This document shows positions 705 to 64,000 of a stretch of DNA of 64,000 nucleotides, piece by piece. Origin of the DNA: Eledone cirrhosa (Eukaryota); assembly GCA_964016885.1 (NCBI GenBank), contig OZ024748.1, forward strand, positions 39,804,001 through 39,868,000, read 5' to 3'. Both the position numbers and the translations under genes were made by a program. Under the pieces are notes generated by a model. The model had not been told where the DNA came from. It ran no database searches and saw only the letters and a program-made list of their open reading frames with translations. Numbering within the stretch: the first letter of the stretch is position 1; each line of letters begins with the position of its first letter.

Positions 705-709
705 ATATT

Positions 710-4433: not shown

Positions 4434-5931
4434 TTCCGACTTTATCGAACCATTTAAAATACATATCGTAGAGAACATAAAGATCAATAACCGTAACGAC
4501 AGATTAATTGCTCTCGAGAAAGCTGACTACAACATCTTTAAATTACAACCTGAAGATGTCATGATCGATTTCCTTACAGATGCTGGCACTAATGCTTTCA
4601 GTCTTGAACAAAACGCAAGAATATGGATGGGTGATGAAAGTTATGCCGGATCTACTAGTTATGAAACTTTGAAAGACACGGCAACATATATTTCTGGTTT
4701 TGAAAACATTCTGCCAGTTTTTTCTGAATGTATCAGCGAAGAAATTGTCGCTTCTTATTTCACAAAAGCTGGAGATAAGGTTATTGGGAATACTTTTACT
4801 TATTCATTTGAGAAGCATATAAAGGATCTTCATGCTGAAGCGATTTCTTTGTTAGATTGGTCAGATAATAATTTTGCAGGAAATCTAGATGTTCAAGCAC
4901 TCAAAAACTTATTGGCAGAAAATGATAAAAAATCAATTTCCTTTCTTATAATGAATGTACCAGCAAAAAGTAGTGGTGGCCAACCAGTTAGTATGTCAAA
5001 CATGAAAGCAGTTTCTGATCTCTGTCGCGAACATTCGATTCCGATATACATCGAAAGTAGTATGTATGGTGAGAACTGTTGGCTCAATAAAATGTACGAA
5101 GAGGCTTACTTCAATAAATCGTTAGTTGAGATATCGCAAGAAATGTTTTCTTTTTTCGATGGCTGCATTATTTCTGCTAAAAGAGATGGTAGAAGTGAGA
5201 TTGGAAGTGTCATTTGTCTTCAAGACAAAGAAATTACTCGAAAATTGGGCACTGTTATTACTCTTAAAGCAGGTTTCATAACTTATGGTGGGATGGCTGG
5301 CCGAGATATGGAAATGGTAGCGGATGGCATGCGAGGTGCTTTGGATGAACAACTGCAAGACTATCGACAAAAACAATTGGCATTTTTCAAAAGATCCCTG
5401 AAGGAATTTGGTGTTCCGATTGTGGAGCCAGTCGGTTGTAATACCATCTTCATTGATGCCGAAAATGCTTTTCCTAACTGTAAACACGCGTTTTATCCAG
5501 CCTGGTCTTTATCTTGTGCTGTTTATATCGTCGGGGGTATCCGATGCGCAGAGTTTGGTCAAGTTACTCGTCCAACAAGTAGCTTACCCACTAATCATTT
5601 TCTGAAAGACCGAGAATTACTAAAGCTTGAGATACCTCGTTTCATCTATACGACTTGTCACATTTTCTATGTTGCCTATGTTTTCGCTCAGCTTATTTCA
5701 CATGAAATGCTTTCTGGAATGAAACTTATTGCCTGCTCCGAAGACCAAATAAAAATCGTGAAAATAAAAATGAAACCAAATCATTCTCTGGAATATGACG
5801 ATATCCAACTCCTTCCGGTACAAGACTGTAAACACATTCACTTCTTTAAAAACATATCTAATCAAAGAGTTATGAAAAGAAATTCAATCGCCGAGGTATC
5901 TTCTATATGGTCAGTCGACATTCCTTCTTAA
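4434..5931 (+). CDS. Tryptophanase/tyrosine phenol-lyase-like protein lacking the PLP lysine (probable non-catalytic subunit), main exon, copy A
   Basis: EPFKI, YNIFKL..EDV.IDFLTDAGT, GDESYAGS, GGQPVSM.N, TYGGMAGRDME, GIRCAE motifs. SAKRD replaces SxKKD (AGA at 5182-5184). The ORF-track TTG start lies in a LINE fragment; the likely exon start follows tttcctttCAG (4431-4433). Confidence 0.9.
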
Positions 5932-7659: not shown

Positions 7660-8291
7660 CTTCCTTCACTTATTCCTGAGAAGGTCGTGGGGGAAGAGTC
7701 TTGAAACACTCCTTCTAGCAGGTCCTGTCAGAAGCAACCATCTCCAACTGATTTGGCTGGATCCCCAAGCGAGACCTGCCAAGCTTATGGATGTTATCCA
7801 ACTATCTTGCTCAGGGTCTACTCCTGGGTCTCCTGCTGGTTGGTTTTGCCAATAAAATCTGTCCAGTATTTCCTTGGACATTCTAGCCATATAATATGTA
7901 ATATCAGAGCTATGATTTCTCAATTCGGAGAAGTATCAGTTCTACCAGGAGTGATTCACAAGTCTCCAAGCTACACACACTATCGAGTAATGATACTCCA
8001 AATACCCTTTTGGAGGAACCCCATTTTGGCTACTTGTATTTGCGATTGTATTCTTTCAGTCATTACACAAGATTCATGACCATAGGTAAGGGTTGGCACG
8101 AAAACCGAATTGAAGATAGTGAGTTTGGTATTTACACCTACCTCCCTTCTTCTGATTACCAAATGCCAAAGCTGTCACATTACTGCAGCAGCTCCTGCAA
8201 TTATTGCACTTAATTCGGCCTCCTGCCTTCCATCACTCGTGACCATGGCCCTGAGATACTTGAACTTCTCTACCAACTTCAGTAGAACTCC
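7660..8291 (-). mobile_element. RTE-type LINE fragment, truncated at the telomere-repeat junction
   Basis: TKLTIFNSVFVPTLTYGHESCVMT..IQVAKMGFL is typical of the RTE ORF C-terminal part; the sequence continues further in copy B. Confidence 0.75.
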
Positions 8292-9310
8292 CTAACCCTA
8301 ACCCTAACCCTAACCCTAACCCTAACCCTAACCCTACCCCTAACCCTAACCCTAACCCTAACCCTAACCCTAACCCTAACCCTAACCCTAACCCTAACCC
8401 TTATCCTAACACTACCCCTAACCATATTGGCCTGGTATGCTGAACAAACTCTAACTCTATCACTACGCCTAACCCTAACTCTAGCCATATTGGCCTGGTA
8501 TGCTGAACAAACTCTAACCCTAACCCTAACCCTAACTCTAAACATAACTCTGGCACTGACACTAATACTAACTCTAACCCTAACCCTAACACTAACCCTA
8601 ACACTAAAACTGACTCTAACCCTAACTTTAACCCTAACTCTAACCCTAACCTTTACTCTAACCCTAACACTAACACTAACTCAAACTCTTAACATTACTC
8701 TAACCCTAACTCTAACCTAACTTTAACTCTAAACCTAACTCTAACCCTAACACTAGCCCTAACTCTAACTCTAACTCTGACCCTAACGCTGACCATAAAT
8801 CTAAACCTAACTCTAACCCTAACTCTAACCCTAACTCTAATCTAAGCTTAACTCTAATCCTAACTCTAACCCCACCTCTAACTCTAAACCGTAACCTAAC
8901 TCTAACCCTAACTCTAACCCTAACTCTAACCCCAACTCTAACCTAACTCTAACCCTACCTCTAATTCTAGCCCTAACCCTACCCTTAACTCTAAACCTAA
9001 CTCTAACCATAACTCTAACCCTAACTCTAAGCCTGAATCTAATCCTAACTCTAAACTTAACACTATCCCTAACTCTAACCCTAACTCTAACCCTAACTCT
9101 AACCCTAAATCTATCCCTAACTCTAACCCTAACCCAAACCCTAACCCTACCTCTAACTCTAACCCTAACCCTAACTCTAACCCTAACCCTAACCCTAACT
9201 CTAACCCTAACTCTGACCCTACCTCTAACCCTACCTCTAACTCTACCCTTAACTCTGACTACAACCCTAATCAAACCCCTAACTGGTCTAACCCTAACTC
9301 TAACGAACCC
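8290..9310 (-). repeat. Interstitial telomere-like (TTAGGG)n tract, near-perfect at 8290-8400 and degenerate to the right
   Basis: (CCCTAA)n run, then mixed CTCTAA/CACTAA/CCCTAC units. Confidence 0.9.
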
Positions 9311-10203: not shown

Positions 10204-10286
10204 CTGCAAACAAGTGTTTACAGTAGAATCTTTGCAACTAAACAGATTGTTAGGAACACGTGTAATTACTGTCTGAATAAAGTGAC

Positions 10287-20100: not shown

Positions 20101-20533
20101 ATTCCAGTCCCCCACTAAAATTAAGGAGCGAGACGTTCCCAGAAAAGACTAGACGCTTAAAGAAGTCTGGCCGTGATTGCGATTTCCCGGTCGGGGCATA
20201 AACGGCCACCAGTCTGAAGGCTCCACCTCCGATACTGTTCACGTCTAGGACTACCAGTCTACCCTCCGGGTCCAAGTGTACTTGCTGTACTCCGACGTCC
20301 AGGTTCTTCCGAAACATAACAGCCACTCCACCTCCACCTCCTAGCTGACAGAGAGATGCGTAGATCTCAAAGTCGTCGAAGATGGGGGTTAGTTGTTGCC
20401 TGTTGTGGATCCTGGACTCGGTGATGGCTATCACATCCATACTGTGTGACCTAAGGTCGTTTAAAAGTTGGCCCTGTTTCCAGGGCATCCCTAGGCCACG
20501 CACATTCACGGTTCCAACTCGTAAACCAGCCAT
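17104..20533 (-). pseudogene. Tx1/L1 ORF2 (APE endonuclease-reverse transcriptase), disrupted
   Basis: Six consecutive minus-strand ORF pieces carrying the APE, RT and zinc motifs. Confidence 0.88.
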
Positions 20534-21167
20534 GTTGGTGAAGAAAAGTTGGAGAAAAAGGACGAAATGTGCACTTACCTTTTCGTTTCCTGGAGATCGG
20601 GTTGTTCAATCTCCATTTGGGTGCTGGATGGGGTGTTGGGTGGGGTGGGGGACACATTTTAACAGGACGCGGTTGATGGGTTTGTGGCAGGGGTTGCCCA
20701 CCTCCTGTGAAAATTTAATTTTTAGGTCTTTATAGGTTTCCATAGAAACCCTTATAAGTTTAAGGTGTGGAGACGATTCTGCCTTGACGAAAGTTTTGAC
20801 CTCCGTCTCCACCTTGGGGTTTGGGGAGATGACCTCCATCAAACTCTTGTTGTTTGTGTTGATGTATGCGTATTGTTGTTTGTGTTTTTGTTGTGTTGTT
20901 TTAGTTTGTTGTTCATCCGGGAGTTTTCTTTTTATGGTGGGTGCTTGTGTTTGGGGTGGTGTTGGTGCTGGTTTTGCTGATAGGGGGATGTTTGACTGTG
21001 GTGTTGTTTGTGTTGTTGTTTGTGTCTGTGGCTGTGTGTTGGTGTTGGTGATTGGAGTTTTTAGGGTTTTGTGGTGTCTCCTTTTTTGTTGTTTAGATTT
21101 CCGCGGTTCTCCCTCTTCTTCACTTAAAGAAGGAGAAGCAGCTTCATCCGTCGATGAATAATAATCG

Positions 21168-22472: not shown

Positions 22473-22706
22473 GTTATTTACTTTGTAAAATCTGATATTT
22501 TAAAACAAATTTTTAAAATAAAATTTTCGCCCCTGCAAGGGCGAAAAATGGGATTGCCTCCCAGCTGACAATTCAGGTTGGGGGTTAATCTACAAAATAA
22601 TGTTTTTTCAAACAATTAGTTCGGTTTTTTGCATAGAAATTAACAAAAAAGCTTACCGGCGATGTTCCACACGTCAGACAGAAAGAGAGATAGGTAGATA
22701 GATATG

Positions 22707-25700
22707 TTTCTTTATTAGCCACAGGGGCACAAAAGAAGGGGAAAAATACAAAGGGGGAAGTTTACATACAATAAAAACGTGTAAAATGTTATCACAAATG
22801 CAATTTAAAAAGTTAGTCGATTTTCGCCAATAGAGGGAGACAGTTTATATGGGTAACACATACCCCCGAAAAAATGTGCAACCCTCATCTCCAGGAGTAC
22901 GAAGAGTTTGTACTCCTTTCCTCTCCTCCTCCTTTTCCTCAACCTAAAGGCTGATATAGAGAGAAAGCCCATTCACTCGGGCCATTCTCGCCACTTTCAC
23001 CCACCTTTCATAAAACTTGCTGGGGTACAGCACCTCTCTCTCCATCCTGATTCTTCTTCCAAAGTGGTATTTGAAAAAAAGAATCAGTTGTTGGCCGGAG
23101 AGAAAGGTGTCTGACCTCAGCCCTTTCAACCTTGTCCACCATACAACCTCTTTCGCCATAGCTATCACACAAATGAAGACCGCCTCTCCTTCGTTTTTGA
23201 AGGAGGGTGGCGGTTTGATCATGACAATGGACTCGGTGGTCAACCGGATTGGTCCCACCCGTGACAATAGTCGTTCTACATAGCCCCACAGGTCAGTGAC
23301 GCCCGGGCAGTGTATGAATGCGTGCGCGACGGTTTCTTCGTCTCGCACGCACCTCGGACAGATCTCTTTTGCAGGGTCCCTGCCCGTGCGCCCATGTCTG
23401 TAGAGCTTGTCTCGAACTGGTAGAGCTCCTCGGTAGCATTGCCAGGCCAGGGACTTTTGGAAGTTGTCCATCGGTCCCGGGCGGAAGGTCCTACCGAACA
23501 GACTGGCCAGTTCATCTTCCTCTACGCCCAAAGTTTTCCCGAGCGCGACGTCACACTTGCTGCGGATCAACCCTCTATAGAATGACGAAGTGGAGTCTCC
23601 ACTGATCGCCGGGTCCGCCTGCCAGAGGGCTGTGAGCGCCTGAGCACATTCGATGTGCCAGTCGCCCATTTTCCTCGGTCTTTGCTTGACCCAGGACTGC
23701 AGCTCGGTCAGCGAGACGAGTCGTGGGAAGGCTCGCCTCACGAACGGGACCCACACCGGTTGTCCGGTGAGGAATACGTAGAGATGCCGCAGCCTGAGCG
23801 CGTGTTTGCGCATCGTCAACCACGGCATCCCCAGCCCTCCGTTAGAAGGGTGTTGGCAGCAGATGGATCTTCTCACCAAAAGAGCCCGCCTCTTCCAAAG
23901 GAATTGGAAGAGCGCGCGCTCCATTTTGGCGAGCGTTTTGGCTGGACAAGGCACGACGGTCAAGCGGTAGTAGATGGCGTACGCTATAAAAGTGTTCGCC
24001 ACCTCCGCTCGACCTTTCAATGATAGTTTGCACTCGGCCCACTTCTGGGTGAGTGCAAATACCTTGGCCGTCACTTCGTTCCAGTTCTTCTCCACCTGGA
24101 GGTCCGGATCAAACCAGACCCCGAGCAGCTTTACCGGTCCTTTCGTCCAGCGTCTGACGACGCCATCGGAGGGCATCGGTTTGCCTCTCCACGATCCGAG
24201 TTGCAAACCGATGGACTTGTCCCGGTTCAGCTTCGCTCCTGTGAAACTTTCGTATTCCTTCAGTAAAGTGTCGACTTCCTCGATTTGCGAGGCGCTCGAC
24301 ACCATTACTTACACGTCGTCGGCGTAGGCCGACGCCGCTTTCCGCAGTCCCGGTTCCAGAGGGATGCCCTGCAATAGCTCCAACTTCCGCAGTAGTGGCT
24401 CGAGAGTCAGTACGTACAGAAGGGAGGAGAGAGGGCATCCCTGTCGAATGGATCGCGTAATATGGAACGGCTCCGAGAGGTAGCCGTTCACCTTGACCCT
24501 TGAGCAGATGTTGCAGTTGTGCATTGCAGCAATCTAGCCCCTGAACACGGGTCCGAAGCCTGCCGCCTCGAGCACCGCATCCAGGTAACGATGGTCAACC
24601 CTATCGAATGCCTTAGACTGATCCAAGTTGATCAGGGCCCCACCGAAGCCGGGTTTACACCCTACCCTCTCTATGATGTATCGCATGAGGTGGAGGTTGT
24701 CGTGTATGGACCTGGTCGGGATTGCGCATGTCTGCACTTCTCCCACCAGGTTCTCGACGACAAGCGCCAGCCTCTTTGCCAACACCTTGGCCAAAATCTG
24801 TAACTCTGTGTTTAGCAGAATTATGGGCCGGAAGTTGCCTATGTCATCCCCCTTATTCTCGTCCTTCCTGATTAGTGTGACCACACCCGCGGCTACAGAA
24901 CTGGGAATTCTCCCATTCTGTTGCCAGTTGCAGTAGACCGCTTCCAGGAGACCGGAGAATAAGTCCGGCATTGCTACGTAAAATTCGTAGGGTAGACCGT
25001 CGAGACCTGGAGATTTGCGTTTGCCGCATTGGCTCAGCGCGTCCCCTATCTCAGCGGCTGAAATCGGCTTTTCGCAGAACTTTGCCTCGCTGTCCGAGAG
25101 TCGCGGTAGGCCGTCGAGGTATGGACCGAAATCCATAGCCCCTCCCGGCGCGCCGCCCCTCCCGAACAGTTGAGCAAAATGCCGCTGAAAGGCCGCACAC
25201 ATCTGCTTCGGCTCACGTATCACGCGTCCGTTTTGGTCCTTCAAAGACCGAATCGTGGACTTGTTGCCACTTTTTGCCTCCGTCACTCGGGCCCAGCTAA
25301 CATCTTTGGCTCCCTCGTTTCCCAGAGCACGTATTTTGCTTCTGACAACGCAGCCCTCGTGCTTTGCGTCGAAGAACTGGTCCAAGGCCGTTATCGTTGC
25401 TAGCACGCTGGCTACGTTGCCACTTCTAATTGCCTCTTCTACTTTATCTACCAGTTCCTTCTCGGTTCTATTTCTATCTAACGCTAATTCTTTACTAAAA
25501 ATTAACGAGTCTAATCTAACTGCCCTCTTGAGAGAGTACCACCATCTGTTGTTGACAATGGCCCCTGTCAAGTGCTGTTTAACTAAAGTGCTAATCCGCC
25601 TACTGTAAGTGTAAGTGTAATTTTCTTGTGTTGTGTTTGTTTTTGTCTGTAGTTCTTGTGTGTGCTTTCGTTTTGTTGTAGGTATTTTGTTTTCAGGAGG

Positions 25701-26290
25701 TGGGGGTTTTGTTTGTGATGTTTTTGTTGTTTGTGTTGGTGGTTGTATGTTTGTGGTAGTGTTTGCTGGTTTTTTGCTTTTGTGATGTCTTTTCTTTCTT
25801 TTCAAGCGATGGGGTTCTCCCTCGTCTTCACTGGGTGATGGCGAGATAGCCTCATCTGTTGTATCGTCTGTGTGATTGGAGAGGGGTATGTCTTGGGGAG
25901 CTGTTGTGTCTGTATGTGATTTTGCAGTGGTTTTAGGTGGAGTGGGGTTGGGTGGGACTGTGTTTGTTGTGGTTATTTTTGTGTGTTGGCGTTGTTGTTG
26001 TGGTGGTGGTGTTGGTGGTTGTGTTGTTTTGATGGGTGTCGGCAGAAGAGCCTTTTTTTTATTCATTAATTTAGGACAGGAAGCCCTCAGGTGACCCCTG
26101 CTAAAGCAATGGTAACATGAAGGCCACCTACCCTCAACCGAAAAGTTTATGTAAGTGAGTCCGTCCAGGAGTACACGTTGTGGGATCATAGCTATTCGCT
26201 CTGGGCTCATTTGCACCAGAACTTCAATGCTAGTCCCATTGAATACATCTCTGGGGGACTTGCCTACTGACAGTATTCTGTCACTACCAA
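22707..26290 (-). mobile_element. Second Tx1/L1 element, 5'-truncated and internally deleted (ORF1 tail fused to RT, APE missing)
   Basis: ORF 24534-26216 joins CYHCFSRGHLRASC and a P/T-rich linker to the post-APE part of ORF2; RT and C-terminus at 22944-24524; AATAAA tail at ~22712. Confidence 0.88.
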
Positions 26291-30156: not shown

Positions 30157-31940
30157 GTTCCTTGAGACTCAGTCATTGATGTTATTTAACTGGAAAGTTT
30201 GTTGAAATGAATATCAAGCCGCTACCTGCAGCCTCAGATATTCAGGACGTATTGGAGGGTTCTTGCTGTTCCCAGCAAGCATGCCTTTTGAAGTGTTCCA
30301 AAAAGCGGGGCTGGACTAATCTTCTTTAACCATCCTTGGAAACTCTTTGAGATAGTACCTAGTGCGCCTATGACAATCGGGACGACCTTGATTTCATGGC
30401 AGTTCCAAATCCTTTTTAACTCTCACTTTAAGTCCTGATATCGGTTAATTTTCTCCCTCTCCTTTTCTTGTACTCTCGTGAAAAATGGGCAGGCTACATC
30501 TACAATCAGGCACGATCTTTTTTCCTTGTCCAAAACCACCAGGTCAGGTCTATTGTGTTCTAATTTCTTGTCCGTCTGTATCCTAAAATCCCACAGCACC
30601 TTCACCTGATCGTTTTCTATCACCGACTCTGGCTTATGCTCATGCCACTTCTCAGAATGTGGTAAATTGTTTCCTTTGTATAGATGCCAGTGGATCACCC
30701 TGCCCATCACATCATGTCTCCAGCCTTTATAGTGAGTCTGGGCTTGGTGTTTACACTCGGATACAATGTGAGTCTCAGTCTCCTCTCTCTCCACAGATCC
30801 TACACATTGGACTAGCCTCCTTGTAAATATGGCGTTTCACCCACTTCGTTCTGAGGGCCTGCTCTTGCGCAGCCATTAGCATTCCTTCTGTAGCTTTTTT
30901 AAGGTCTCCTCTTTTTAACCAGTTCCATGTCTGTGGATCTCTAAATTCAGTTTTCCTAAAGAAGGTACTATGAAGGGATATTTCATGAAGGTTGCTCTTC
31001 CTCCTTGTTGTTATTTCCTCCTTGGACATCCCCTGGTCTATTGTCTTCTCCTTCAGTACAATTTTGAGCATTGGCTCCTTACTGTCAGTCGCGTATTTGT
31101 GCAGGTTGTTTTTCTCCATCTGAACACAGTCCTCTATGCTGATAAGACCTCTTCCACCTTCAGATATCCTTAAGTCGAGTCTATCGACATCACTCCTCTT
31201 GTGGAACATGTTGTAGATAGTCAATAGCTTCCTAGTCTTTCTATCCATTTCTTTTTGTTCAGCAACATTCTATTTCAGAATAGACACAGCTCGGGAATTC
31301 ACTGCACTTATGACATTCCTACTGTTCAGGTGTGACTTTAATACGCTCCTTACTCTCCTTATGTACTCAGATCTTATCAATTCCTTCATTTTTTTGTTCT
31401 TGATGTCATCTGCCTCCCGAACACCTAAATATTTGTATCCTTCTTCAGTGTCAATTTCCTTTATCATCTCATCTGTTGGTACATGGATTCCGTTGCTTCT
31501 GCTCAATTTACCCCTCTTCATCACTAGGACTCCACACTTATTAATACCAAATTGCATACATATATCATTGCTGAAAATACGGACAGTGTCAACAAGCACA
31601 TCCAACTCCTTCTCACTCTTCCCGAAGAGCTTAAGTTCGTCCATGAAGAGGAGGTGATTGATGGTAAGCTCTCCTTTTCCCAACTTGTATCCTGCTCTCA
31701 CTTTTCGCAATATAATGGTCAGGGGTATCAAGGCAAGGACAAACAGCAGAGGGGACAAACTCTCTCCCTGGAAGATACCTCTCTTGATCTTCACGCCTCC
31801 CAAGGATTCTCCACTCGATGTTAACTCTGTTTCTCAGGACTTCATACTTTTGCTCAACAACTGTCTGATGTTATCTGCCACCTTGAAGATCTCTAGGCTT
31901 TTGGTGATCCAAGAATGAGGTACCATGTCGAATAGCTTTT
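30157..31940 (-). mobile_element. R4/Dong-clade (RLE) non-LTR retrotransposon, 5'-truncated and frameshifted
   Basis: RGIFQGESLSPLLF, HLLFMDELKL, GGRGL, CRICG..ETETHIVSEC, RHD, LWDFRIQTDK..HNRPDLV..IVDVACP..EKI.RY; (TAA)n 3' flank. Confidence 0.88.
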
Positions 31941-32167: not shown

Positions 32168-32502
32168 AAATTGCCTTTTCTATATCCTACACTGTTACGT
32201 AAACCCTCCCTTTTCTATCGCCTCTCTCTCTTTCTTTCTGCCTCAATACATACATACAGACAGACACACACACGCTATCTATCTAGGACATAATTATTCC
32301 ACGATCGACAAGTAACAGTACACAATAGCGCACTTATGACAGGCCAGAGATTTGCGTGGGAGGTGATCTACCATAAATAACATCAATTCTACGAAACATC
32401 TGCCAAACCAACAAGAAACAGCCATGGACTTCTCCGATCTGTAAGAAAATCTTCTTTTCAATATTTTTTTCGAAATTATATATATGTGTATATATATATA
32501 TG

Positions 32503-33623: not shown

Positions 33624-34311
33624 CGGGGGTTGGACAAAATAATGGAAACACCTAGCATCATAGAATCATAATTTGGAAATATCTATAAAACCGTCAAAAG
33701 CTTGTTTATTTTTATTGTTCTCGGGGTGGTCATTAATTTTGGTAGTAATTTTGGTAGTAATTTTGGTAGTAATTTTGGTAGTAATTTTGGTAGTAATTTT
33801 GGTAGTAATTTTGGTAGTAATTTTGGTAGTAATTTTGGTAGTAATTTTGGTAGTAATTTGGCAGTAATTTTGGGAGCTGTACTTTTGTGATCCTTTCTAA
33901 CAATTCGCGTAAGAGTCCGACGGTATCTATCTGAAAGTTTTGGTTTTCTTCCGGAGTTTTGTTTCGACGAGGAGATTTTTCCCTCTTTCTCAAAGACTGT
34001 CATTACTTTCGAGACAGTACTTCTTGATACACCAAACATTTCGGCTGTTTTCGTTACGCTAGCGCCTGCCATACGAGCACCAACAATTTGACCTCTTTGA
34101 AAGTCCGATAGATCTGTCATTTTAATGAATTTTAATTACCTTTTTCTGATGATATCTGGAGAGAAACAGCAATTTTAACAAATCATATTAAGCAACACTA
34201 ATAATAAATATAAAAAAACATAAAAATAAACAATCTTTTGACGGTTTTATAGATATTTCAAAATTATGATGCTATGATGCTAGGTGTTTCCATTATTTTG
34301 TCGAACCCCTG
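33624..34311 (-). mobile_element. Tc1-like DNA transposon, internally deleted, with a 12 bp minisatellite expansion
   Basis: ~90 bp TIRs (C.GGGGTT.GACAAAATAATGGAAACACC), TA flanks, paired-type HTH MTDLSDFQRGQIVGAR..GRKPKLS; (AATTTTGGTAGT)n at 33735-33870. Confidence 0.9.
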
Positions 34312-38994: not shown

Positions 38995-39390
38995 GTTTCT
39001 TCTTCGTCCAGTTATTTCTGAGAGGGTCGTGGGGTCAGAGTCCTCCAACACTCCTTCCTGCAAGTCATGTCAGAAGCAACCGTTTCCAACTGATCCGGCT
39101 GGATCTCCCAAGCATGACCAGCCAAGCTCATGGATGTTAGCAAACCATCTTACTCAGGGTGGGTCGATCCCTGGGTTTCTTGTCGGTTTGTTTTGCCCGT
39201 AAAATCTGTCCGGTGATTCTTTCCTGAGACATTCTAACCACATGTCCATAGTATCAGAGCTGTGATCTCTCAATTCGGAGAAGTAGCGGCTCTACCTGGA
39301 GTAACTCTCTGATCTCAGAACTACGCACCCTATCGAGTAACATTACTCCAAAGACCCTTCAGAGGAATCCCATTTCGGCCGCTTGTATTG
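38995..39390 (-). mobile_element. RTE-type LINE fragment (intronic, copy B)
   Basis: Duplicate of 3975-4370. Confidence 0.65.
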
Positions 39391-39453
39391 TTTCTATTTA
39401 CGAAATAACACAACTGAGGATTTTAATAGTGTCAAATTTTCGTTTCCTTTCAG

Positions 39454-40951
39454 TTCCGACTTTATCGAACCATTTAAAATACATATTGTAGAGAACATAA
39501 AGATCAATAACCGTAACGACAGATTAATTGCTCTCGAGAAAGCTGACTACAACATTTTTAAATTACAACCTGAAGATGTCATGATCGATTTCCTTACAGA
39601 TGCTGGCACTAATGCTTTCAGTCTTGAACAAAACGCAAGAATATGGATGGGTGATGAAAGTTATGCCGGATCTACTAGTTATGAAACTTTGAAAGACGCG
39701 GCAACATATATTTCTGGTTTTGAAAACATTCTGCCAGTTTTTTCTGAATGTATCAGCGAAGAGATTGTCGCTTCTTATTTCACAAAAGCTGGAGATAAGG
39801 TTATTGGGAATACTTTTACTTATTCACTTGAGAAGCATATAAAGGATCTTCATGCTGAAGCGATTTCTTTGTTAGATTGGTCAGATAATAATTTTGCAGG
39901 AAATCTAGATGTTCAAGCACTCAAAAACTTATTGGCAGAAAATGATAAAAAATCAATTTCCTTTCTTATAATGAATGTACCAGCAAAAAGTAGTGGTGGC
40001 CAACCAGTTAGTATGTCAAACATGAAAGCAGTTTCTGATCTCTGTCGCGAACATTCGATTCCGATATACATCGAAAGTAGTATGTATGGTGAGAACTGTT
40101 GGCTCAATAAAATGTACGAAGAGGCTTACTTCAATAAATCGTTAGTTGAGATATCGCAAGAAATGTTTTCTTTTTTCGATGGCTGCATTATTTCTGCTAA
40201 AAGAGATGGTAGAAGTGAGATTGGAAGTGTCATTTGTCTTCAAGACAAAGAAATGACTCGAAAATTGGGCACTGTTATTACTCTTAAAGCAGGTTTCATA
40301 ACTTATGGTGGGATGGCTGGCCGAGATATGGAAATGGTAGCGGTTGGCATGCGAGGTGCTTTGGATGAACAACTGCAAGACTATCGACAAAAACAATTGG
40401 CATTTTTCAAAAGATCCCTGAAGGAATTTGGTGTTCCGATTGTGGAGCCAGTCGGTTGTAATACCATATTCATTGATGCCGAAAATGCTTTTCCTAACTG
40501 TAAACACGCGTTTTATCCAGCCTGGTCTTTATCTTGTGCTGTTTATATCGTCGGGGGTATCCGATGCGCAGAGTTTGGTCAAGTTACTCGTCCAACAAGC
40601 AGCTTACCCACTAATCATTTTCTGAAAGACCGAGAATTACTAAAGCTTGAGATACCTCGTTTCATCTATACGACTTGTCACATTTTCTATGTTGCCTATG
40701 TTTTCGCTCAGCTTATTTCACATGAAATGCTTTCTGGAATGAAACTTATTGCCTGCTCCGAAGACCAAATAAAACTCGTGAAAATAAAAATGAAACCAAA
40801 TCATTCTCTGGAATATGACGATATCCAACTCCTTCCGGTACAAGACTGTGAACACATTCACTTCTTTAAAAACATATCTAATCAAAGAGTTATGAAAAGA
40901 AATTCAATCGCCGAGGCATCTTCTATATGGTCAGTCGACATTCCTTCTTAA
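39454..40951 (+). CDS. Tryptophanase/tyrosine phenol-lyase-like protein lacking the PLP lysine, main exon, copy B
   Basis: 7 aa differences from copy A; SAKRD (AGA at 40202-40204); acceptor CAG at 39451-39453. Confidence 0.9.
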
Positions 40952-41479
40952 AAAGGGGACAAACACGTTAGATAATGTAATCGTAGACACAAAAAAGACG
41001 TGGTAGTCATGATTGGAACGTCCCTGATCATAGAATTGCTCTGTCAATGTTCACCTGAACTTAAACAACAGCAACAACAACACAGAGATTTTTTTTGTTG
41101 CACCCAAACAGGATTCTGTAAATTCTAGATTGTACATTCTTTTATTCTTTTACTGGTTTCAGTCATTAGACTGTGGCCATGCTGGGGCACTGTTCTTTTA
41201 CTGGTTTCAGTCATTAGACTGTGGCCATGCTGGAGCAGTGGTCTTTTACTGGATTCAGTGATTCTACTGTGGCCATGCTAGGGCACCAATTGATTGTTAG
41301 TTTGTTTTTTTTAATTGGTTTTATTCCCAACAATTAAACTATTGAACATGATTTTGAATAGAAAGTAGGGGAAAACATTGACAGTCTTGTCAAATATAGT
41401 TTTAATATTATGTTAACAAAAAAAGGAAATAAAATATCTTTGGAAACTTAAATATATTTCTTGTGATGTTCTTTTACAA

Positions 41480-41725
41480 TTATTTCACCAATATATAATT
41501 AATATCAAACATTGTGATGTATGTTTCACCAATATATAATTAATAACAAACATTGTGATGTATGTTACACCAATATATAATTAATATCAAACATTGTGAT
41601 GTATGTTACACCAATATATAATTAATATCAAACATTGTGATGTATGTTTCACCAATATATAATTAATATGAAACATTGTGATGTATGTTTCACCAATATA
41701 TAATTAATATGAAACATTGTGATGT
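41480..41725. repeat. 41 bp minisatellite (copy B)
   Basis: Same unit as 6460-6748. Confidence 0.9.
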
Positions 41726-42629
41726 GGTTGTGATAATTCGGGGAAAGATGGTACAACGAATATTAGATAAACTAAGGTGAAAAGATACAACAAATCAGCA
41801 TTTTAAACTTTCGTCTTATATTTCTTGATATTTTGAGGTGAGAAACTTTTTTCAAAAGAAAGAAATGGAGTCTGGTGTTGTCAACGCCCAAAGAAATGTT
41901 GATAAACGATTTATTTACATCAACTTATTATTGATGGTGACATGCTTTTGTTTCACTTTAAAAAAATATTATAATAAGGTGACATACTAATATAAATATT
42001 ATTTTAAAAATAAAAAACAAATCTTGAAACATCTTATGACTGTGGCAGTGGCAAGGTTTATAGAGTTAAGAAGCCTCACAACCATCTGATTTCTGGTTCC
42101 TTTAGACTACATGGCATCTTAAAGAAGTGTCTTTCTGCCATAGGTTCGAGTCAACAAAACGGACAGTTTGCCCTTTTCGGCTTGGCGGGCAGCAGGGCCT
42201 GGACTGGTGGTGGAATGCACCAGGTTGGCACTTGCAATTAATTGTAATATAACTGATAGATGTTGTTTCAATTCTCTGCCATTAATTGTAGATCAACGAC
42301 AACATTGTTGCAGTAGTTATTTCAATTATGTGCCATTAATAATCTGTGTTACGAACACTACATAAATAGTCTACAGGTGTTACCTTGATTTCACCAGATG
42401 GAAATATCAAAATCAAAATTGATTATGTAATTGTTCCAAACAATATTCTCGAAATGGTGAAAAACTGCCATGTGTATATTTCTACAGATATTGGTCTAGA
42501 ATATTTCAACTTAGAGACTGGAAAACACAAACGTTATTATCATAAATGTACTGTGATTGTGTGAGGCTTAATTATTAAAGATTGTAAAATCCATTCCCTG
42601 TGAATTATATCCAAGAATTTTCTTTTTCT

Positions 42630-43420
42630 TCCTTCACTTATTCCTGAGAAGGTCGTGGGGGAAGAGTCTTGAAACACTCCTTCTAGCAGGTCCTGTCAGA
42701 AGCAACCATCTCGAACTGATTTGGCTGGATCCCCAAGCGATACCTGCCAAGCTTATGGATGTTATCCAACTATCTTGCTCAGGGTCTACTCCTGGGTCTC
42801 CTGCTGGTTGGTTTTGCCAATAAAATCTGTCCAGTATTTCCTTGGACATTCTAGCCATATAATATGTAATATCAGAGCTATGATTTCTCAATTCGGAGAA
42901 GTATCAGTTCTACCAGGAGTGATTCACAAGTCTCCAAGCTACACACACTATCGAGTAATGATACTCCAAATACCCTTTTGGAGGAACCCCATTTTGGCCA
43001 CTTGTATTTGCGATTGTATTCTTTCAGTCATTACACAAGATTCATGACCATAGGTAAGGGTTGGCACGAAAATCGAATTGAAGATAGTGAGTTTGGTGTT
43101 TACACCTACCTCCCTTCTTCTGATTACCAAATGCCAAAGCTGTCACATTACTGCAGCAGCTCCTGCAATTATTGCACTTAATTCGGCCTCCTGCCTTCCA
43201 TCACTCGTGACCATGGCCCTGAGATACTTGAACTTCTCTACCAACTTCAGTAGAACTCCTTTCGCATGTAGAATGCACTGCGCAGGCTTCCTTTAGAAGA
43301 CGAGTGTCTCAGTTTTCACAGCACTGAATTTCATTCCAGCCATGCAGCACTCTGCATCAAACCTATCAAGTGCAAGTCAGAGATCACCTTTTGTTGAGTT
43401 TGTAACACCATGTTGTCTGC
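42630..43420 (-). mobile_element. RTE-type LINE fragment (longer version)
   Basis: Extends past the copy A breakpoint toward the RT core (FADNM.L). Confidence 0.75.
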
Positions 43421-43513
43421 AAATTCCAGCCACAAATTGCTGGCCATGTGCCTAAATTAGAAAACCTTATTCCTGCAAAAGGTCCTGTTAATCCTTAATT
43501 ATTATTAAATATA

Positions 43514-43920
43514 ACATATATACAAACTGGAGCTGTGTCAGGGACCAGTCCGCAAACATATATACAAACTGGAGCTGTGTCAGGGACCAGCCTGCAAACA
43601 TATATACAAACTGGAGCTGTGTCAGGGACCAGTCCACAAACATATATACAAACTGGAGCTGTGTCAGGGACCAGTCCGCAAACATATATACAAACTGGAG
43701 CTGTGTCAGGGACCAGTCCGCAAACATATATACAAACTGGAGCTGTGTCAGGGACCAGCCTGCAAACATATATACAAACTGGAGCTGTGTCAGGGACCAG
43801 TCCGCAAACATATATACAAACTGGAGCTGTGTCAGGGACCAGTCCGCAAACATATATACAAACTGGAGCTGTGTAAGGGACCAGTCCGCAAAAATATATA
43901 CAAACTGGAGCTGTGTCAGT
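43514..43920. repeat. 42 bp minisatellite (~9.5 units)
   Basis: AAACATATATACAAACTGGAGCTGTGTCAGGGACCAGTCCGC units. Confidence 0.92.
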
Positions 43921-44268
43921 GACAATGTCTGCAAACAATGAGTTGAACATTTTAACACCAAGAAATATATGATAAATAAAAACTACAGTTAACAGATTTT
44001 TGTGTTTTGAATTACTAAAGTGACTCGTGTACAATGTAATTGGTATATATATATATATATATATATACTCACTCTATATGTATGTGTTTTTATATAAATA
44101 TGTAAATATTTGTGTATATATATATATAGTTGTTATATAGTAAGGTGTATTATTGGTTGTGTCATACGGTCCAATAAACTTTTGTTAGCAATATTAAGTT
44201 CTCCACGCTTTTGTATATCTCCAATTCCATTTAAGGGAACAGCTAGATGATGTAAAACGGAGTATTTG

Positions 44269-45867
44269 TATCAAAATAAAGATCCGAAAGCATGGTATAA
44301 ATTTCCAATCATTTTAATCACAACACGTTTCAATAAGGGATAGATCGATCGTGTGGTCATGATCGATTATCACTGATTTCATCATTCTTAACTGAGCGTG
44401 TAATACGTCTATTTACTAACTGAGAGAACTCTATGGTTAGGGTATTCTAAACCTTCCTCAGGATTTTTGGAAAGTAACCTACCACTAACTCCCCCCTTTT
44501 TACCTTAGCCATAGAGTTCTCTCAATTAGCAAAATATAGACAATCACATACTCAGGTAGTAGACAGCTAAGATCGTTTGCGCACTTACACACTGTACTCG
44601 GTATGTTTCCACAGAGTTCTCACAGTTGAGTGCATATTTACCATTACTTTAGAATACCTAGTTAGTAAATAGTTAGAACAATTACACTCGCAGTTAAGAC
44701 CGATTACGCGCATTCACCATTACTTTAGAATACCCTAACCATAGAGTTCTCTCAGTTAGTAAATAGACGTATTACACACTCAGTTAAGAACGTTACGCTC
44801 TTTATACATAATTCTACACAGTACCCGGTTTCTTTAGACACAGAGTTGCCACAGTTATGACCAGTCATGATCTTGTCGATTGAATACTACACTAGGTTTT
44901 GGTCTGTGATCCTCTAACCAAGGAGTGCTCACAGTTTGCTGAATGGACAATACTACTTACACGCCATCAATGGACTTACACACATCCCCGGGGTTTTGTT
45001 ATTTTATTTTGTGTTGGGTAACACACCTCCACCACTCAAACACTTATCTTAAAGGCCCGAGGGCCCATTTGACGGGAAAACGCACACACTGACACCTTAA
45101 CTCAAATACCCAACCCTACATGGAGCCCCTTGTTGGCCTACATGGCAGGTGCTTGCACGCACAGACTCGGGGACCCAGATTCTCAACGGGACAACGGCAC
45201 ATATAGAGTTCGATACGAGCTGACTACTTGCTCTACACATGGATGTGTATATACCAAAACATACACTATTTAGACGATACAGATGTTACAATTCAATCGA
45301 TACACGTATAGCAGAACGTTGAAGGGAATTTACTTGCGTGTGTATAGTGTTGTGGTTGACCCAATTTTTTTCTAATTTACATCGTGAAAATTGAGATTTG
45401 ACCAATATAACGTTTGTTGTTTTGTAACCTAACTTTTGGTGCATACTGTGTTGCTGTGTATATTTTTTTTTCTCTGACCTCGCGTCGGTGTGTGTGAGTG
45501 TGTGTGCACTCAATAACACTAATTGTGACGGACCAAAATTCTACAGATCTGGTGTGGAGATTAGACCTGTCCAGCGTCTTTTACAGCTATTGAGAGATAG
45601 AGACTTCATAGATTTATGACCCTGACTGAAGACAATAGCAGTTGTCGTGTTTTGGCTGCTGATTATTCATATGGGGAACAAAACTCCAGTGAGTGAACAT
45701 CGTTAGTTTTTCCTCCCTCATATCAAAGATTTGAAGACATTTCATTATTCACCTGATGAGATCAGTGATAATCGATCATGACCACACGATCGATCCCTTA
45801 TTGAAAAATGTCTCGTGATTAAAATGATTGGAAATGTATACCATGCCTTCGGATCTTTATTTTGATA
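44269..45867. mobile_element. Non-coding element with ~115 bp inverted termini containing a hammerhead-like motif (Penelope-like relic)
   Basis: 44269-44384 is the reverse complement of 45754-45867; TCAC-CTGATGA...GAAA...TC-GTGA at 45749-45818. Confidence 0.7.
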
Positions 45868-45914
45868 TATATATATAAAACTGAATTTACATTTTTTTTT
45901 CCAGTCTCCAAGCA

Positions 45915-47294
45915 ATGGAACCTTACAGGATTAAGGTATTTTATCCAGTCAATTTAATCCCCAAGTCTGACCGTATTGCATGTCTAAAAGCTGCCAACTA
46001 CAACCCCTTTCTACTTAAATCGAAAGACATATTTATAGATTTGCTAACAGATTCTGGTACAGGAAGTCAAAGCAGTGCCCAGTGGTCGGCTATGACTAAA
46101 GCCGGCTATTCAACTATTAATTCCGAATACGTTAAGGAATTTGTACGTACAATTCAACACATTACCAATTTCAAACATGTATTTCCAGTTCATCAAGGTC
46201 GAGGAGCCGAAGGTTTGTTGGCAAAACTCCTACTGAATAAAGAGAGTGTTGTACTGAGTAATTCTCTCTTTGACACAACACGAGCACACGTTGAGTCATC
46301 TGGTGCAATTGGAATAGATTTGGCAACAAAGTCTTCAAAATTCTTAGGTGATGCCGATGTGGAAAAATTTGAAGAAACACTGGATGAATATGGTTCTAGA
46401 GTTCATCTTGTAATAATAACCTGCACCAATAATGTGGTAGCCGGAGCTCCTGTGAGCATGCAAAATATAGAAATCATAACAAAATTATGTCGAAACAAGA
46501 ATATCCCAGTTATAATGGACGCATGCCGTTTTGTTGAAAATGCTTATTTTATCAAGACCTTAGACGAAAAATATTCTAAACACACAATCTTAGATATTGC
46601 CAGCGAAATGTTTTCTTATTTTGATGGTGCAACTATGTCTTTAAAGAAAGATGGTATGAGCAATGAAGGTGGGTTTATAGCTTTCAACAACGACAAATGG
46701 GCCACCAAAATATTTGACATAATCGAATATAAAAGTGGTTATTCAACTTACGGGGGAATAACTGGATCAAATCTTGTAGCATGTACTGTCGGAATTTCTG
46801 AGGCTATGAACGAAAATTACCTCCGATCAAGAATCTATCAGGCTAAATTACTGGCTGATTTCTTGGAAGATAATAATATTCCCGTATTTAAACCAGTAGG
46901 GGCCCATGCCGTCTACGTGAAAGCAAACAAAGTCTTGCCACACCTTGATTTCTTGAAGTATCCAGCATGGTCCCTTAATTGTGCCGTATATATCGAAGGT
47001 GGTATTCGATGTGCAGAAATTGGCAATATAATGTTTGGTGAAAATTCAGATGGAACAAAACAAATTCATCCCTTTGAATATGTGCGTTTGGCTTTACCCA
47101 GAAGAACCTATACGGTCAACCATCTGCATTTTGTGGCCAAAACTTTTGGTTTTGTTGCCAAAAAAGCCCATTTAATCCACGGAATGGAAATTGTCAAATC
47201 TTCGCATCTCCTAAGACATTTCACAATTTGGATGAGACCATTAAATGAATACCACCTTGAAAAGAATAATAATCAGAAAAAAATAAACTGTTGA
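45915..47294 (+). CDS. tnaA: Tryptophanase (tryptophan indole-lyase)-like PLP enzyme, 459 aa
   Basis: MEPYRIK, IDLLTDSGT, HQGRGAE, FDTTRAH, TNN, DACRFVENAYFIK, MSLKKD (PLP Lys at 46647-46649), GIRCAEIG, VRLALPRRTY, LRHFT. Asp in FDTT, Ile in EIG and His in LRHF are tryptophanase-type rather than TPL-type. The GDEAY motif is lost. Confidence 0.9.
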   Translation: MEPYRIKVFYPVNLIPKSDRIACLKAANYNPFLLKSKDIFIDLLTDSGTGSQSSAQWSAMTKAGYSTINSEYVKEFVRTIQHITNFKHVFPVHQGRGAEGLLAKLLLNKESVVLSNSLFDTTRAHVESSGAIGIDLATKSSKFLGDADVEKFEETLDEYGSRVHLVIITCTNNVVAGAPVSMQNIEIITKLCRNKNIPVIMDACRFVENAYFIKTLDEKYSKHTILDIASEMFSYFDGATMSLKKDGMSNEGGFIAFNNDKWATKIFDIIEYKSGYSTYGGITGSNLVACTVGISEAMNENYLRSRIYQAKLLADFLEDNNIPVFKPVGAHAVYVKANKVLPHLDFLKYPAWSLNCAVYIEGGIRCAEIGNIMFGENSDGTKQIHPFEYVRLALPRRTYTVNHLHFVAKTFGFVAKKAHLIHGMEIVKSSHLLRHFTIWMRPLNEYHLEKNNNQKKINC

Positions 47295-47609
47295 AGTTTG
47301 CCATAAATTACAATGTCAGTTATCTCTTGTGTACAGAAGAAGTTCATTAGAAGTATATATCACACTGGCCAAATTACCCACACCTTGCTGCGTTTCACAC
47401 TTTTTTTTTTTTAAAGAAAATGATGAATGATTTTAAATCAGCGATATAATTTATGGAGAAAAACTCTGCATTTCAATATTACTCAATGTAAAATGTAATG
47501 CATGAAAAATTGGAAAACATTATTTTTTGTTATATATCAAATCAAAATTACATCATTAAATCTGATTCTTATTTTGTTTCTTGTAAATAATTTTTTTCAA
47601 AATATCAAT

Positions 47610-60201: not shown

Positions 60202-60616
60202 TTAATTAGGTTTATAATATTTGAAAGTTCTTCTAATTCTATGATTGCACGATATAATTAATTCTTGTTGCTTATTTAATAGGATATCCTTAGATTTCAT
60301 TATTTCGAAAAGTTCCTGGGAACATAATCTACACTCATATCTGTTATTTTGATAAGGGATGGCCCTTCTGAGCACACTCCAGGTCAGGTTATAATTGATA
60401 TACTTTTTTCTATAATTATTAATTATTTCAGCCAAGGATGTTATATTAGCTAATGCGGCATTTCTAAACTGTGTTTGTGGGTATTAAATCTTACTTTAAA
60501 TTCGTTAGAAGTAGCTCCTATATATGAATAAGTTGAGTCCTTAGTGCTAATTTTACATTTATATACTATGTTATTAATAAGGCAATTTCCTTTTACTGGG
60601 CAATTTGCATTGTTTC
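60202..60616 (-). mobile_element. Penelope-like GIY-YIG endonuclease fragment
   Basis: Minus strand CPVKGNCL..IVYKC..YIGATSNEFKVRFNTH, then W..L..A.PY..CRLC..E..LLNK..E...C.H. Confidence 0.75.
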
Positions 60617-63600
60617 TCAAGGATCAATTTCCCCCTCGTCCTTCTGCATATGAAAGTCTGCTGTCCAGGTTGGTGGTTTGCGACTTCTTTGCGATCTCCG
60701 CAGTGTTGGGGCGGCACTTTGGGTTTCCTCTTCCTCGGAGTCCGTTGACACAGTGATTCTACGGACATCCAGGACATGACGTGGTACTCCGTCCAAGGAC
60801 ACATTGTTCTGGGAATTTATGGCCGTCACCGTTCCCCTTCCCCATTGAGATGTGCAACGTGCATATGGGGGCTTAACCCAGACTTCTTCGCCCACCTGCA
60901 CGAATGCACTCTCTCTCCCCACTGGCCGTTGTGATGGCGTGCACGGGTGCCGCCACTCGTATCTGAATACTGCTCTGTGTGGCACCGATTCCTCGACCTG
61001 TCTCACCCGAGGGGACATGTTGTACCAGAACACTGCCTCCATTGATGAGATATGACCCCGCTCCACCATTGCCTTGATCGTCCGGTGGTGTCGCTCTACA
61101 ATTCCATTCCCGCTCGGCCTGTGCGCTGCTCTGAAGAAACGGTCCACCTTCCATCCATCGAGCATCTCCCTCAGCGCCTCCGAGCGCAACGCTGCGCTGT
61201 TGTCCATCAGCAGTTCGTCCACAGGGCCCCGCTCCAAGAACACCTCTCTCAACGTCCGCATGATTTCCTCGGCCGTTCCAGTCTTCATCTCCCTCCATAT
61301 CGCCATCCGTCCTGATCCACAGTCGACCATCGAGAGGTACGTTCCCTGTCGATAGTGTGTTACATCCACCGCCAATCGCTTCCAGTCGCGATCCACCGAG
61401 AGGCTTCCCGTTTCGTGCACACCCGGGGCGGGATCAATGGACTGACATCGGACGCAGCCTCTAACCACCCTTTGAACACTGTGTCTGTTAACGTCCGAGT
61501 CGATTCTCCTGGCTAGGAACAGGCTCCTATCCACTCCCATGTGGTGCATGTCATGCAACCCTTTCAGATCCGACTCGGTCAGCCGACACACGGCAGCTAT
61601 CTCATCATCTACCTCCTCCGGTGCTTCCATCCAGGCTTTATTCACCCTAGTTAAGACGTCCGCCCTATTTTTCTCTGAGAGCACGAAAACTACACTCAGC
61701 TTCGGGTCGAACTCGGTGGCCAGCTCTCCTAAAGTTCCCAGGCGGCGCTTTATCAGCATCTCCGCCGCCCCTCTCGTTCGCACTCTCTTCTCACTGGTGA
61801 GCACTGATCTCACCCATCCGAGTACAGTAGCCGAGTCGGTGCGTATCTCGATGGATGCGCATTCCCCACCTCAGGGCGAGGTTCACCCCTCTCAACACTG
61901 CGTCCAGTTCGGCTACATTGATGTGGTTGCAGTCGTCCTTCTTCCTAAGCCAGGCTGCATCCTCGACCTCAACACCTCCTATCTCCAACGTGACACCCAG
62001 CGCTATGCTGCTGGCATCGCACCATACGGTCCCGCTCTGTGATTTGGGAACATACCACCCTCCCCACGAACTCCTGCATCGTGACCATCTCTTGACATAG
62101 CTGCATGCCGTCCGGAGCCACCCAGCAATCGGGTAGTCACCCACCAACTTTCCACACACCGAGAAAAGCTCCCGCCTACTCATACTTGGGCCCAGTTCTG
62201 GAACTTCATTTCCCCTCTGGAATACCAAGACGCCCGTCCTGGCTCGCCGTAGCCTAAGTCCCAGCACGGCTCCTCCCTCCAACGCTTCTGACGGTTTCGC
62301 AGCCAGTCCATACCCCTGTAAATGGCTCCTGACCTCCGCCGCCGACACCACAAACTCGTCCACTAGGATGTCGTCATGTAGGAGTTAGTGGCCCTCTTCA
62401 TCTTGTCGGCCTTTCCCAGAATGGCCTTGAGGACCACCGCCATGATCTTCGGTGCGGAGCTCAGCCCGAAACCGAGCCTGGTCAGGCAATGTGTCCGGCC
62501 CTTATACCTGACCAACTGATACTGCCAGAGCTTCTCATCTATATGCAATTGCAAGTATGCCGACTTTAGATCTACGATTGCGTCTCCACTCACGCAGGGT
62601 TTCCCCCACAGAAATCCGTGACCTCGCCACTCGTGTGGCATGACACGTGCTCGTTCAGTTCCCGAAGGTCCAGCACCGGCCTCACCTTGTTCTTCGTGGG
62701 TTGCGCCACCGCCATTAACGGCAATACTCCGCACTTCACCTCCTCTTTCCAGGGAAGCAGTATGCCCTCCTCAATCCATCTCTCTACCTCTCGCTCGAAC
62801 TCGCCCCTAATGTTTCCCTTCAATGTGTGTTGATAGCAGCCCACTTTGGTCTTCAGTGTTGGTGGTTCTCTCTTCCAGTACCACTCAACAACCCATCGCT
62901 GCCTATCGAACACGGCCTTGAAGTCTTTGTCCTGCACAGTGTAAGCGGGGTATTTCTCCTCGTGGGCCTTCTGGTTCTCCTGTCGCGTACTCACAGCGCA
63001 TACCGATGCAGCGGCACCAAACGACACACCGACGTTGTTCACTGTGACGCCTCCTAGACGGCAAATTGCGTCCATGCCCATAACCACGCCGATCCCATCC
63101 ACCACGCTGTCTACTACGATGGCAGAAAGCCTTATTTTCCTTCCCCGTACCGCTATTTCCATCTCGCTGCGATCTCGGCATTCAATTTTCGTGCCATCGA
63201 CTGCCCTTACGCTGCTCTTCCCTCTTCACCTCTGCGCCACCCCCGCGATCACCAGTGTCGTCGTACAACCCGTGTCCACGAGGGCTCGCTGTGGCTTTCC
63301 CCTCACGAAGACACCCACCACGGAGAGCGCCTCTACTCGTAACGGGCAACTACCGGCGCAGTAGTTCCTCTTGGATCGTTTCCCTGGTCGCAGTTAGTAG
63401 CGATGTGGCCTGGTCGCTTACACCGGTAGCATATTATTTCCGGCCTTGACTCTCTGCAGTCTCTAGCCATGTGCGGGCCCTGGCACCGAAAACAGCGACC
63501 TCTAAACGTTCGCGGGCGACCGCGTGCCGTGGTTGCCTACCTTTCACCATTTCGCTGCCAGCTGTCTTGAGCCTCTGTAGTTGCTATCGCCGCGACACTC

Positions 63601-64000
63601 TTCTTGGCATCTTCTGCTATGATCCGGGCTATTTCCACCAGTGAACGCATTTCCATTTCTTTGTAACCCGGGACTTGCTGCAGTTTCACCGCTATCTCGT
63701 CTGGAATTCCATTTATGAACGCCAACCGCACCGTGCGTTCGCATTCCACCTGATATCCAGCCAACATGGCCAATCGCCGTATTTCCGCTGCGAAAAGGTC
63801 AACGCGTTCACCGTTCCATCTAATTCTTGCCAGGTTAGCGAAAGCGGCTAACGGTCCCTCTGCGAACGCTTCCATCATGCGCCTCTCAATCTTTTGCGCA
63901 TCTCTTTGGCTGTGTTCGTCCAACTCAAGGAAGAGTACCAACGCGTCCCACTCGACGTACAGTGCCATGAGGCCAGCCACATCTTCTATCTTCTGCAAGC
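60617..64000 (-). mobile_element. Gypsy/Ty3 LTR retrotransposon internal region (gag-PR-RT-RH-IN), frameshifted, runs off the window
   Basis: gag with CCHC knuckles, ALVDTG protease, RPVLDLRELN/DLKSAYLQ/RLGFGLSSAP RT, CDASS..HINVAEL RNase H, HHMG..C..C/DVTH/MDN/GNGIVER integrase; PPT-like GAGGGGGAAA at the end. Confidence 0.92.

Follow-up and report, generated by a model that had tools for sequence, protein, structure and literature searches.

The locus analyzed here raises the question of how a tryptophanase could be made when neither of two neighboring coding frames encodes a complete catalytic site. It lies in a 64,000-nucleotide stretch of the octopod Eledone cirrhosa (assembly GCA_964016885.1 of 3.0 Gb, contig OZ024748.1 or C8, positions 39,804,001 to 39,868,000 of the forward strand), called the window below, which holds three tryptophanase-family frames along with debris of long interspersed nuclear elements (LINE) and long terminal repeat (LTR) elements and satellites. 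The initial annotation described two paralogous genes, here A and B, whose products would rebuild one active site as an enzyme/pseudoenzyme heterodimer. In our best reading, to which we give a probability of about 0.86 on sequence grounds, this is an octopod tryptophan indole-lyase (TIL) locus that encodes an obligate A:B heteromer from one alternatively spliced gene. A single first exon would have exons B and A as alternative splice partners, and the resulting proteins would form a catalytic dimer that has just one functional site: A would bind pyridoxal 5'-phosphate (PLP) and tryptophan, and B would lend Tyr71, Tyr291 and Glu69 (numbering of tyrosine phenol-lyase, TPL). The subunits would be expected to pair physically, to form an A2B2 tetramer that has two sites where a homotetramer has four, and to show a low Trp-to-indole activity. 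The composite site of the initial annotation is well supported by sequence, but its paralogous genes and its statement that no such split had been described did not survive. Calling one partner a pseudoenzyme also proved too one-sided, since both subunits lack a catalytic residue.

Glu69 is the cation-site residue in these enzymes. Bacterial tryptophanase (P. vulgaris 1AX4, E. coli 2C44) and TPL (C. freundii 2EZ1) share the full-length fold family and the two-chain site with the window proteins. These enzymes are homotetramers with four full sites, whereas A and B each lack either Lys257 or Tyr71. Passages of PMC11301627 list Thr50, Ser52, Arg101, Phe132, Asp133, Asn194, Asp223, Ser263, Lys266, Arg414, His458 and Phe459 as the ligand surroundings and state that Tyr72 is supplied by the other chain of the catalytic dimer. 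Similarly, a passage of PMC2770544 describes Tyr74 and Tyr307 as extending to the PLP of the neighbor, and one of PMC10170061 names Lys257 and Tyr71 as TPL residues.

The cofactor subunit A is encoded at 45905..47294 on the plus strand by a frame that aligned with solved TPL and tryptophanase over nearly the whole chain (E value 4e-99). The PLP lysine (TPL Lys257) is encoded at 46647..46649, a Thr codon at 46113..46115 replaces Tyr71, and a Tyr stands at the Glu69 position (46107). All 12 same-subunit site residues checked are present in A, in agreement with the earlier claim that it keeps every cis motif and has Thr at the Tyr71 position. Only one of the three partner residues (Tyr71, Tyr291 and Glu69) remains. 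The partner loop had been described as lost, and Tyr71 and Glu69 are indeed gone, but Tyr291 is still present in the window copy; it is Phe in three of seven A-type rows of the alignment. The Tyr at 46107, which the initial annotation had itself named as a possible replacement acid that would undo its proposal, was rejected for this role because the other six A-type rows have His, Phe or Val there. The tryptophanase-type pair Asp133 and His458 (P. vulgaris numbers) was found in 7/7 A-type rows. At the positions of TPL Thr124, Arg381 and Phe448, which mark TPL (EC 4.1.99.2), A has Asp, Ile and His, and its score with the TPL family model TIGR02618 was 382 bits against a cut-off of 720.7.

The donor subunit B, at 39454..40951 on the plus strand, likewise aligned with the solved enzymes over nearly its whole chain (E value 3e-84) and shows the opposite pattern. 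It keeps GDESYAGS, the 287-298 loop and all three partner residues, with the Tyr71-equivalent codon, predicted to supply the general acid to the partner site, at 39662..39664. Its PLP pocket appears dead: an Arg codon at 40202..40204 replaces the lysine, as in all B-type rows, Asp214 is changed to Glu, Asn185 to Lys, Arg217 to Met and Arg404 to Lys, and only 2 of the 12 same-subunit residues (Thr49 and Ser254) are left. B is a mirror image of A in this sense, as first described, and the motifs quoted for the two frames are all found in the sequence where they had been placed. The alignment to solved enzymes bore out the reciprocal pattern, and the published site residues divide by subunit (12/12 same-subunit residues in A, 3/3 partner residues in B), which supports a composite site. 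An AlphaFold2 model of B built on a 7-row alignment reached a predicted local distance difference test (pLDDT) score of 52 and was not used.

The split was then followed across homologues. A and B are only 29% identical, consistent with their earlier description as highly diverged. Lys257 is present in 7/7 A-type rows, 0/6 B-type rows and 222/222 single-domain homologues, and Tyr71 in 0/7, 6/6 and 222/222, respectively; the 222 homologues come from the top matches of the A and B searches and lean to tryptophanase-like relatives. This reciprocal pattern holds across all A-type and B-type rows and is not chance decay. A seventh B-type protein, P0370, has the same pattern as the six rows. GDESY is kept in every B-type row, so its loss from the lysine-less proteins, which had been named as grounds for abandoning the proposal, was not observed. 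Chiton, bivalve and coral homologues carry both Lys257 and Tyr71. Among 93 columns at least 99% conserved in the 222 homologues, 8 are lost in A-type rows only, 29 in B-type rows only and 1 in both, and the D-E-x-Y-A-G loop accounts for five of the eight lost only in A-type rows. A second chiton paralogue, from Liolophura sinensis (P0534 / P0378), was seen alongside these; it keeps Lys257 and Tyr71 while its same-subunit residues are decaying. Glu stands for Asp214 in P0534, a change shared with cephalopod B, and Asn185 and Phe123 are altered as well; this is perhaps an early step of the same split.

Both subunits belong to the family by its models (PF01212; NF009709 PRK13238), with A scoring 493 and B 398 bits against a cut-off of 285, and neither reaches an equivalog cut-off. 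Canonical tryptophanase (EC 4.1.99.1) has the lysine and Tyr71/72 in one polypeptide; A has no such Tyr and B no such Lys. Asp133 and His458, expected on the cofactor subunit, are found in A, and by these two positions the signatures of both A and B are of the tryptophanase kind.

Most likely the two frames are not separate genes but last exons used alternatively after a common coding exon of 17 nt. The candidate shared first exon, at 32424..32440 on the plus strand, encodes Met-Asp-Phe-Ser-Asp and two bases of Leu and is followed by a GT donor at 32441 and a phase-2 intron; nowhere else in the window is the back-translated N-terminus of the Octopus bimaculoides isoforms strictly matched. Exons B (39454) and A (45905) both begin after an AG acceptor in the same phase, and this acceptor is kept at all loci compared (9/9 for A, 10/10 for B). 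The ATG at 45915 is internal to exon A and is not its start. Joining exon 1 in silico to B gave an open product of 504 residues and joining it to A one of 468 residues, and these predicted products start like O. bimaculoides X1 and X2, respectively. RefSeq names the B protein of O. bimaculoides isoform X1 (XP_014791032) and the A protein isoform X2 (XP_014791033); their accessions are consecutive and their first six residues identical, and O. sinensis has X1 and X2 isoforms as well. Together with the contigs described below, which start at the acceptors, these data argue against neighboring paralogous genes. The statement that both open reading frames are intact is right in that both are open, but neither is a whole gene, as each begins at a splice acceptor. 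The window proteins are 71-83% identical to their best named relatives (Octopus, Argonauta). Contamination is an unlikely source of the locus given the 60.6-Mb contig, the introns and the orthologues in named octopods.

Splicing was examined in contigs from sequencing runs, compared over 39300-47600, a range that has the exon 1 junction outside it. Run X4 holds 88 million letters of contigs of unrecorded type. Its contig for B has its first letter exactly at 39454 and extends to 41162, beyond the B stop into the 3' untranslated region (UTR), and its contig for A has its first letter exactly at 45905 and extends to 47412. Ahead of the acceptor each contig carries 29 letters without a match anywhere in the stretch, and most of the intron sequence is bare. 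By comparison, contigs of the DNA-like runs X1 and X3 continue through both acceptors. The first letter of both exons is T, and the resulting 29 + 1 common letters would be expected if an assembly with 31-letter words forked after a common upstream exon. Both exons were seen in X4 as spliced-looking contigs.

The B search also returned two proteins of about 850 residues, and a follow-up search from one of them gave 120 clusters among the matches listed. At least 119 clusters are represented, and all 119 stored proteins longer than 800 residues (an Argonauta model excluded) are two-domain. In 119/119 the N-half has Tyr71, Tyr291 and Glu69 and lacks Lys257, and in 119/119 the C-half has Lys257, lacks Tyr71 and Tyr291 and carries TPL-type Thr124 and Phe448. 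The positions lost overlap between B and the fusion N-half with p 3e-6 (99% conservation level) and between A and the fusion C-half with p 0.089 at the 99% level and 0.009 at the 90% level. Donor-only domains made up 10 of the 186 domains scored (149 new ids plus the two window proteins), namely two of cephalopod B type and eight first domains of proteins of 617-928 residues. By these residues the same predicted split design recurs in cis in the bacterial fusions. Three two-domain bacterial proteins, P0374, P0376 and P0394, have the lysine in both halves and are possible intermediates or a second fusion event. The predicted fold of P0305 from Plebeiibacterium marinum (locus L021; 123 rows) had a pLDDT of 93 and a predicted template modelling (pTM) score of 0.91 with TPL as best match, a model in which the halves would pair as a catalytic dimer. 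No double-length chain was present among 22 PDB sequence matches of P0305, and the search for loci related to it found only its own, with no pathway clue among the neighbors.

These fused TPLs of about 880-930 residues divide the site between their halves as A and B do, and B precedes A on the same strand in the order of the bacterial halves. An 847-residue Argonauta model also unites both types. Translation of B and A as one chain like the bacterial 880-residue proteins is nevertheless very improbable. A stop ends B in 10/10 copies compared, the X4 contig for B enters the 3' UTR while that for A starts with a loose 5' end of its own, the RefSeq isoforms are two separate proteins, and in the Argonauta model the order is reversed and the C-terminal part of A with Arg404 is missing. 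Unlike the single-chain bacterial proteins with their TPL-type Thr124/Phe448, exon B of the window ends at its own stop (40951), and the contig for it continues into a 3' UTR. As a separate observation, three consecutive Argonauta hians models, P0007, P0123 and P0246 (Ahia01_001214700/800/900), hold A, part of A plus B, and A; Argonauta also seems to have the unit in tandem, and a joining of gene models probably accounts for the 847-residue protein.

The origin of the split was assessed with trees. In a first tree B joined the fusion N-halves, a grouping flagged as long branches meeting. A mixture-model tree was then made from 96 rows (the earlier 85 rows minus 31 near-duplicates plus 42 added, a set with no true outgroup and no solved TPL sequence). 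Here A and B were sisters, with support of 87-88 in the Shimodaira-Hasegawa-like approximate likelihood ratio test (SH-aLRT), and both fusion halves grouped together elsewhere (99). A and B sit in a mainly animal clade (97-99) of mollusc, horsehair-worm, coral and one further row. A clade of A with the fusion C-halves was rejected by the approximately unbiased (AU) test (p 0.0015 and 1e-8); placing B with the fusion N-halves was 42 log-likelihood units worse and was not rejected (AU p 0.107). Independence of the cephalopod split from the bacterial fusions is, as far as trees can tell, firm for A and likely for B. The A clade and the B clade each contain an octopod group and a deeper group, which suggests that the two subunit types predate the split of the sampled cephalopod lineages; the deeper rows are probably squid or cuttlefish. 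In the proposed history, an ancestral animal tryptophanase with one large exon would have had this exon duplicated behind one promoter early in the sampled cephalopod line, and each copy would then have lost the half of the common site that the other could supply.

Several observations weigh against the obligate heteromer from one spliced gene. The mutual exclusion of A and B column losses is not significant (Fisher p 0.26), and the one column lost in both subunits is a near-invariant Glu (A position 274). The sister support of A and B is below 95, and it was 18 in a smaller tree. The exon 1 junctions themselves we infer from the length and place of the 29 letters. X4, besides its unrecorded type, is a single sample of a single study. 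Its alleles fit the copy at C8:39.13 Mb (12/12 coding differences in A, 11/11 in B) and not the window copy, so X4 gives no sign of expression of the window unit. Finally, 15 one-domain representatives naturally lack Tyr71, ten of them with Phe, which makes an A-only enzyme with another substrate conceivable. The ten with Phe (P0405, P0421, P0386, P0434, P0435, P0439, P0456, P0465, P0470 and P0497) are themselves possible other-substrate lyases.

Such an enzyme would be A acting alone as a homo-oligomeric beta-lyase on Cys, Ser or S-conjugates whose good leaving groups would make a general acid unnecessary, with B as a regulator or switch that brings in Trp activity or dampens A and the splice ratio setting the mix. 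Tyr71-to-Phe mutants retain activity with substrates that have good leaving groups. The PLP pocket of A is complete, the X4 contig depths are unequal (56 for B, 27 for A), although contig depth is a poor measure, and according to a passage of PMC11301627 an Asp133 mutant is also still active on good leaving groups. We consider an A-only enzyme unlikely, however, as the loss in A extends beyond a hydroxyl to the entire loop with Glu69, the indole-binding Asp133/His458 are kept in 7/7 A rows, which makes sense only with a Tyr donor, the donor residues of B are invariant, and neither cephalopod subunit is reportedly active on Trp by itself.

The window unit is one of many. Searching the genome yielded 23 matches, each of them on C8 at 39.13-40.13 Mb (25/25 candidates scored). 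Exon B is represented by 10 forward copies and 2 inverted partial ones, and exon A by 9 forward copies, of which two are split into two pieces. Exon 1 together with two open frames was found in 5/10 units including that of the window, one of the five having a longer B frame. In the other five, exon 1 is missing or a frame is broken by a stop or frameshift, lesions of the latter kind affecting three A copies and one B copy. The B-to-A spacing differs in all nine units with both exons (5.4-6.5 kb). A pure assembly artefact is unlikely because spacing and lesions differ between units; the copy number is that of the assembly. The two inverted partial units, on the minus strand at G000:C8:39591894-39594754 and 39656305-39659239, cover the region of exon 1 and the beginning of B. 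They face broken forward units and could yield antisense or hairpin RNA.

In an array of this kind the window unit might be a silent or drifting duplicate, with the heteromer made mainly from another copy, which is compatible with the A:B heteromer for the family as a whole. We regard this as possible but clearly short of even odds. The X4 alleles fit the C8:39.13 Mb copy only while DNA-like contigs carry window-type alleles, half of the units are damaged, and variants among A copies (15 non-synonymous plus 1 stop versus 4 synonymous) are close to the site ratio of 3.65, so that A copies are near neutral within the array, on small numbers. Conversely, exon 1, the two acceptors and the two open frames are all present in the window unit, minor alleles are lost from contigs and the X4 sample differs from X1 and X3, and variants among B copies (23 non-synonymous versus 13 synonymous) fall below the site ratio of 3.8.

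The core idea of two disabled, mutually completing tryptophanase subunits appears to have been published and tested for cephalopods already. Yuasa 2023 (J Mol Evol) reportedly describes cephalopod TIL-alpha and TIL-beta, which arose by a duplication before the octopus-squid split and have disabling substitutions in each. Alone, neither is said to act on Trp, while co-expression reportedly gives a heterotetramer of weak activity. The earlier statement that no such split had been described is therefore very probably wrong. The window proteins correspond to this system, being 82-83% (A) and 75-76% (B) identical to their Octopus orthologues; the locus differs in coming from another species and in having about ten tandem units. 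The title of Yuasa 2023 (J Mol Evol 91:912, PMID 38007709), on cephalopod enzymes, stands in the reference list of PMC12980246.

Comparable cases are found elsewhere, in which two defective subunits rebuild one interface site as proposed for A and B. In serine palmitoyltransferase, the defective subunits LCB1 and LCB2 complete one interface site. Judging by their titles, Phillips 2002 is said to treat H463F/Y74F hybrid dimers of E. coli TIL, and Afanador 2018 trypanosomatid deoxyhypusine synthase (DHS). The TIL hybrids are engineered, though, and DHS and LCB1/LCB2 are other enzyme families with separate genes, not alternative exons. The trypanosomatid DHS case is cited by title in PMC10216422. 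Passages of PMC8537960 list octopus tnaA and do not mention a split, and a passage of PMC4962025 reports a tryptophanase transcript in a whelk. A literature search, with most subscription papers outside it, found no paper that describes the divided site, its encoding behind a shared exon or the fused bacterial proteins.

What may be new here is the exon design, the roughly tenfold array and the bacterial parallel. The locus mainly carries a known cephalopod idea to another octopod, with its encoding and recurrence as the part that may be added. A wider scheme joins these elements: exon duplication would have made a one-gene obligate heteromer in which splice choice sets ratio and activity, the same PLP-site split would have arisen at least twice (by alternative exons and by tandem fusion with intermediates), and the array would be a dosage increase for indole chemistry. 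We offer this combination tentatively, at a little under even odds. If true, the locus would be a natural replicate of homomer-to-heteromer entrenchment within one family, and the one-gene, two-exon design would explain a lasting co-regulation of both subunits. The probably independent bacterial fusion with the same partition would make neutral entrenchment versus adaptive heteromers testable in one family.

The third tryptophanase-family frame of the window is an orphan second copy of exon B at 4434..5931 on the plus strand. It had been taken as a twin of B sharing the mirror-image pattern, and it is an open exon B, but it reads FTYSF and not FTYSL and has no exon 1 upstream and no exon A downstream. 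No exon 1 pattern for it was found in window positions 1-4434 or in the 10 kb before the window. Its homology to an intact unit ends at 8291, and a telomere-type hexamer array of 160 copies (8290..9253, no strand assigned) lies at this break point. The hexamer array begins exactly where the homology of the orphan copy ends and resembles a healed break inside the tandem array of units. Further along, a 27-bp minisatellite of about 201 copies at 10285-15703 has long plus-strand open frames and is probably a non-coding satellite. Inspection by translation showed decayed LINE-like, Tc1-like and LTR-integrase-like frames at 17100-26200, 30775-31650, 33683-34120 and 60600-64000.

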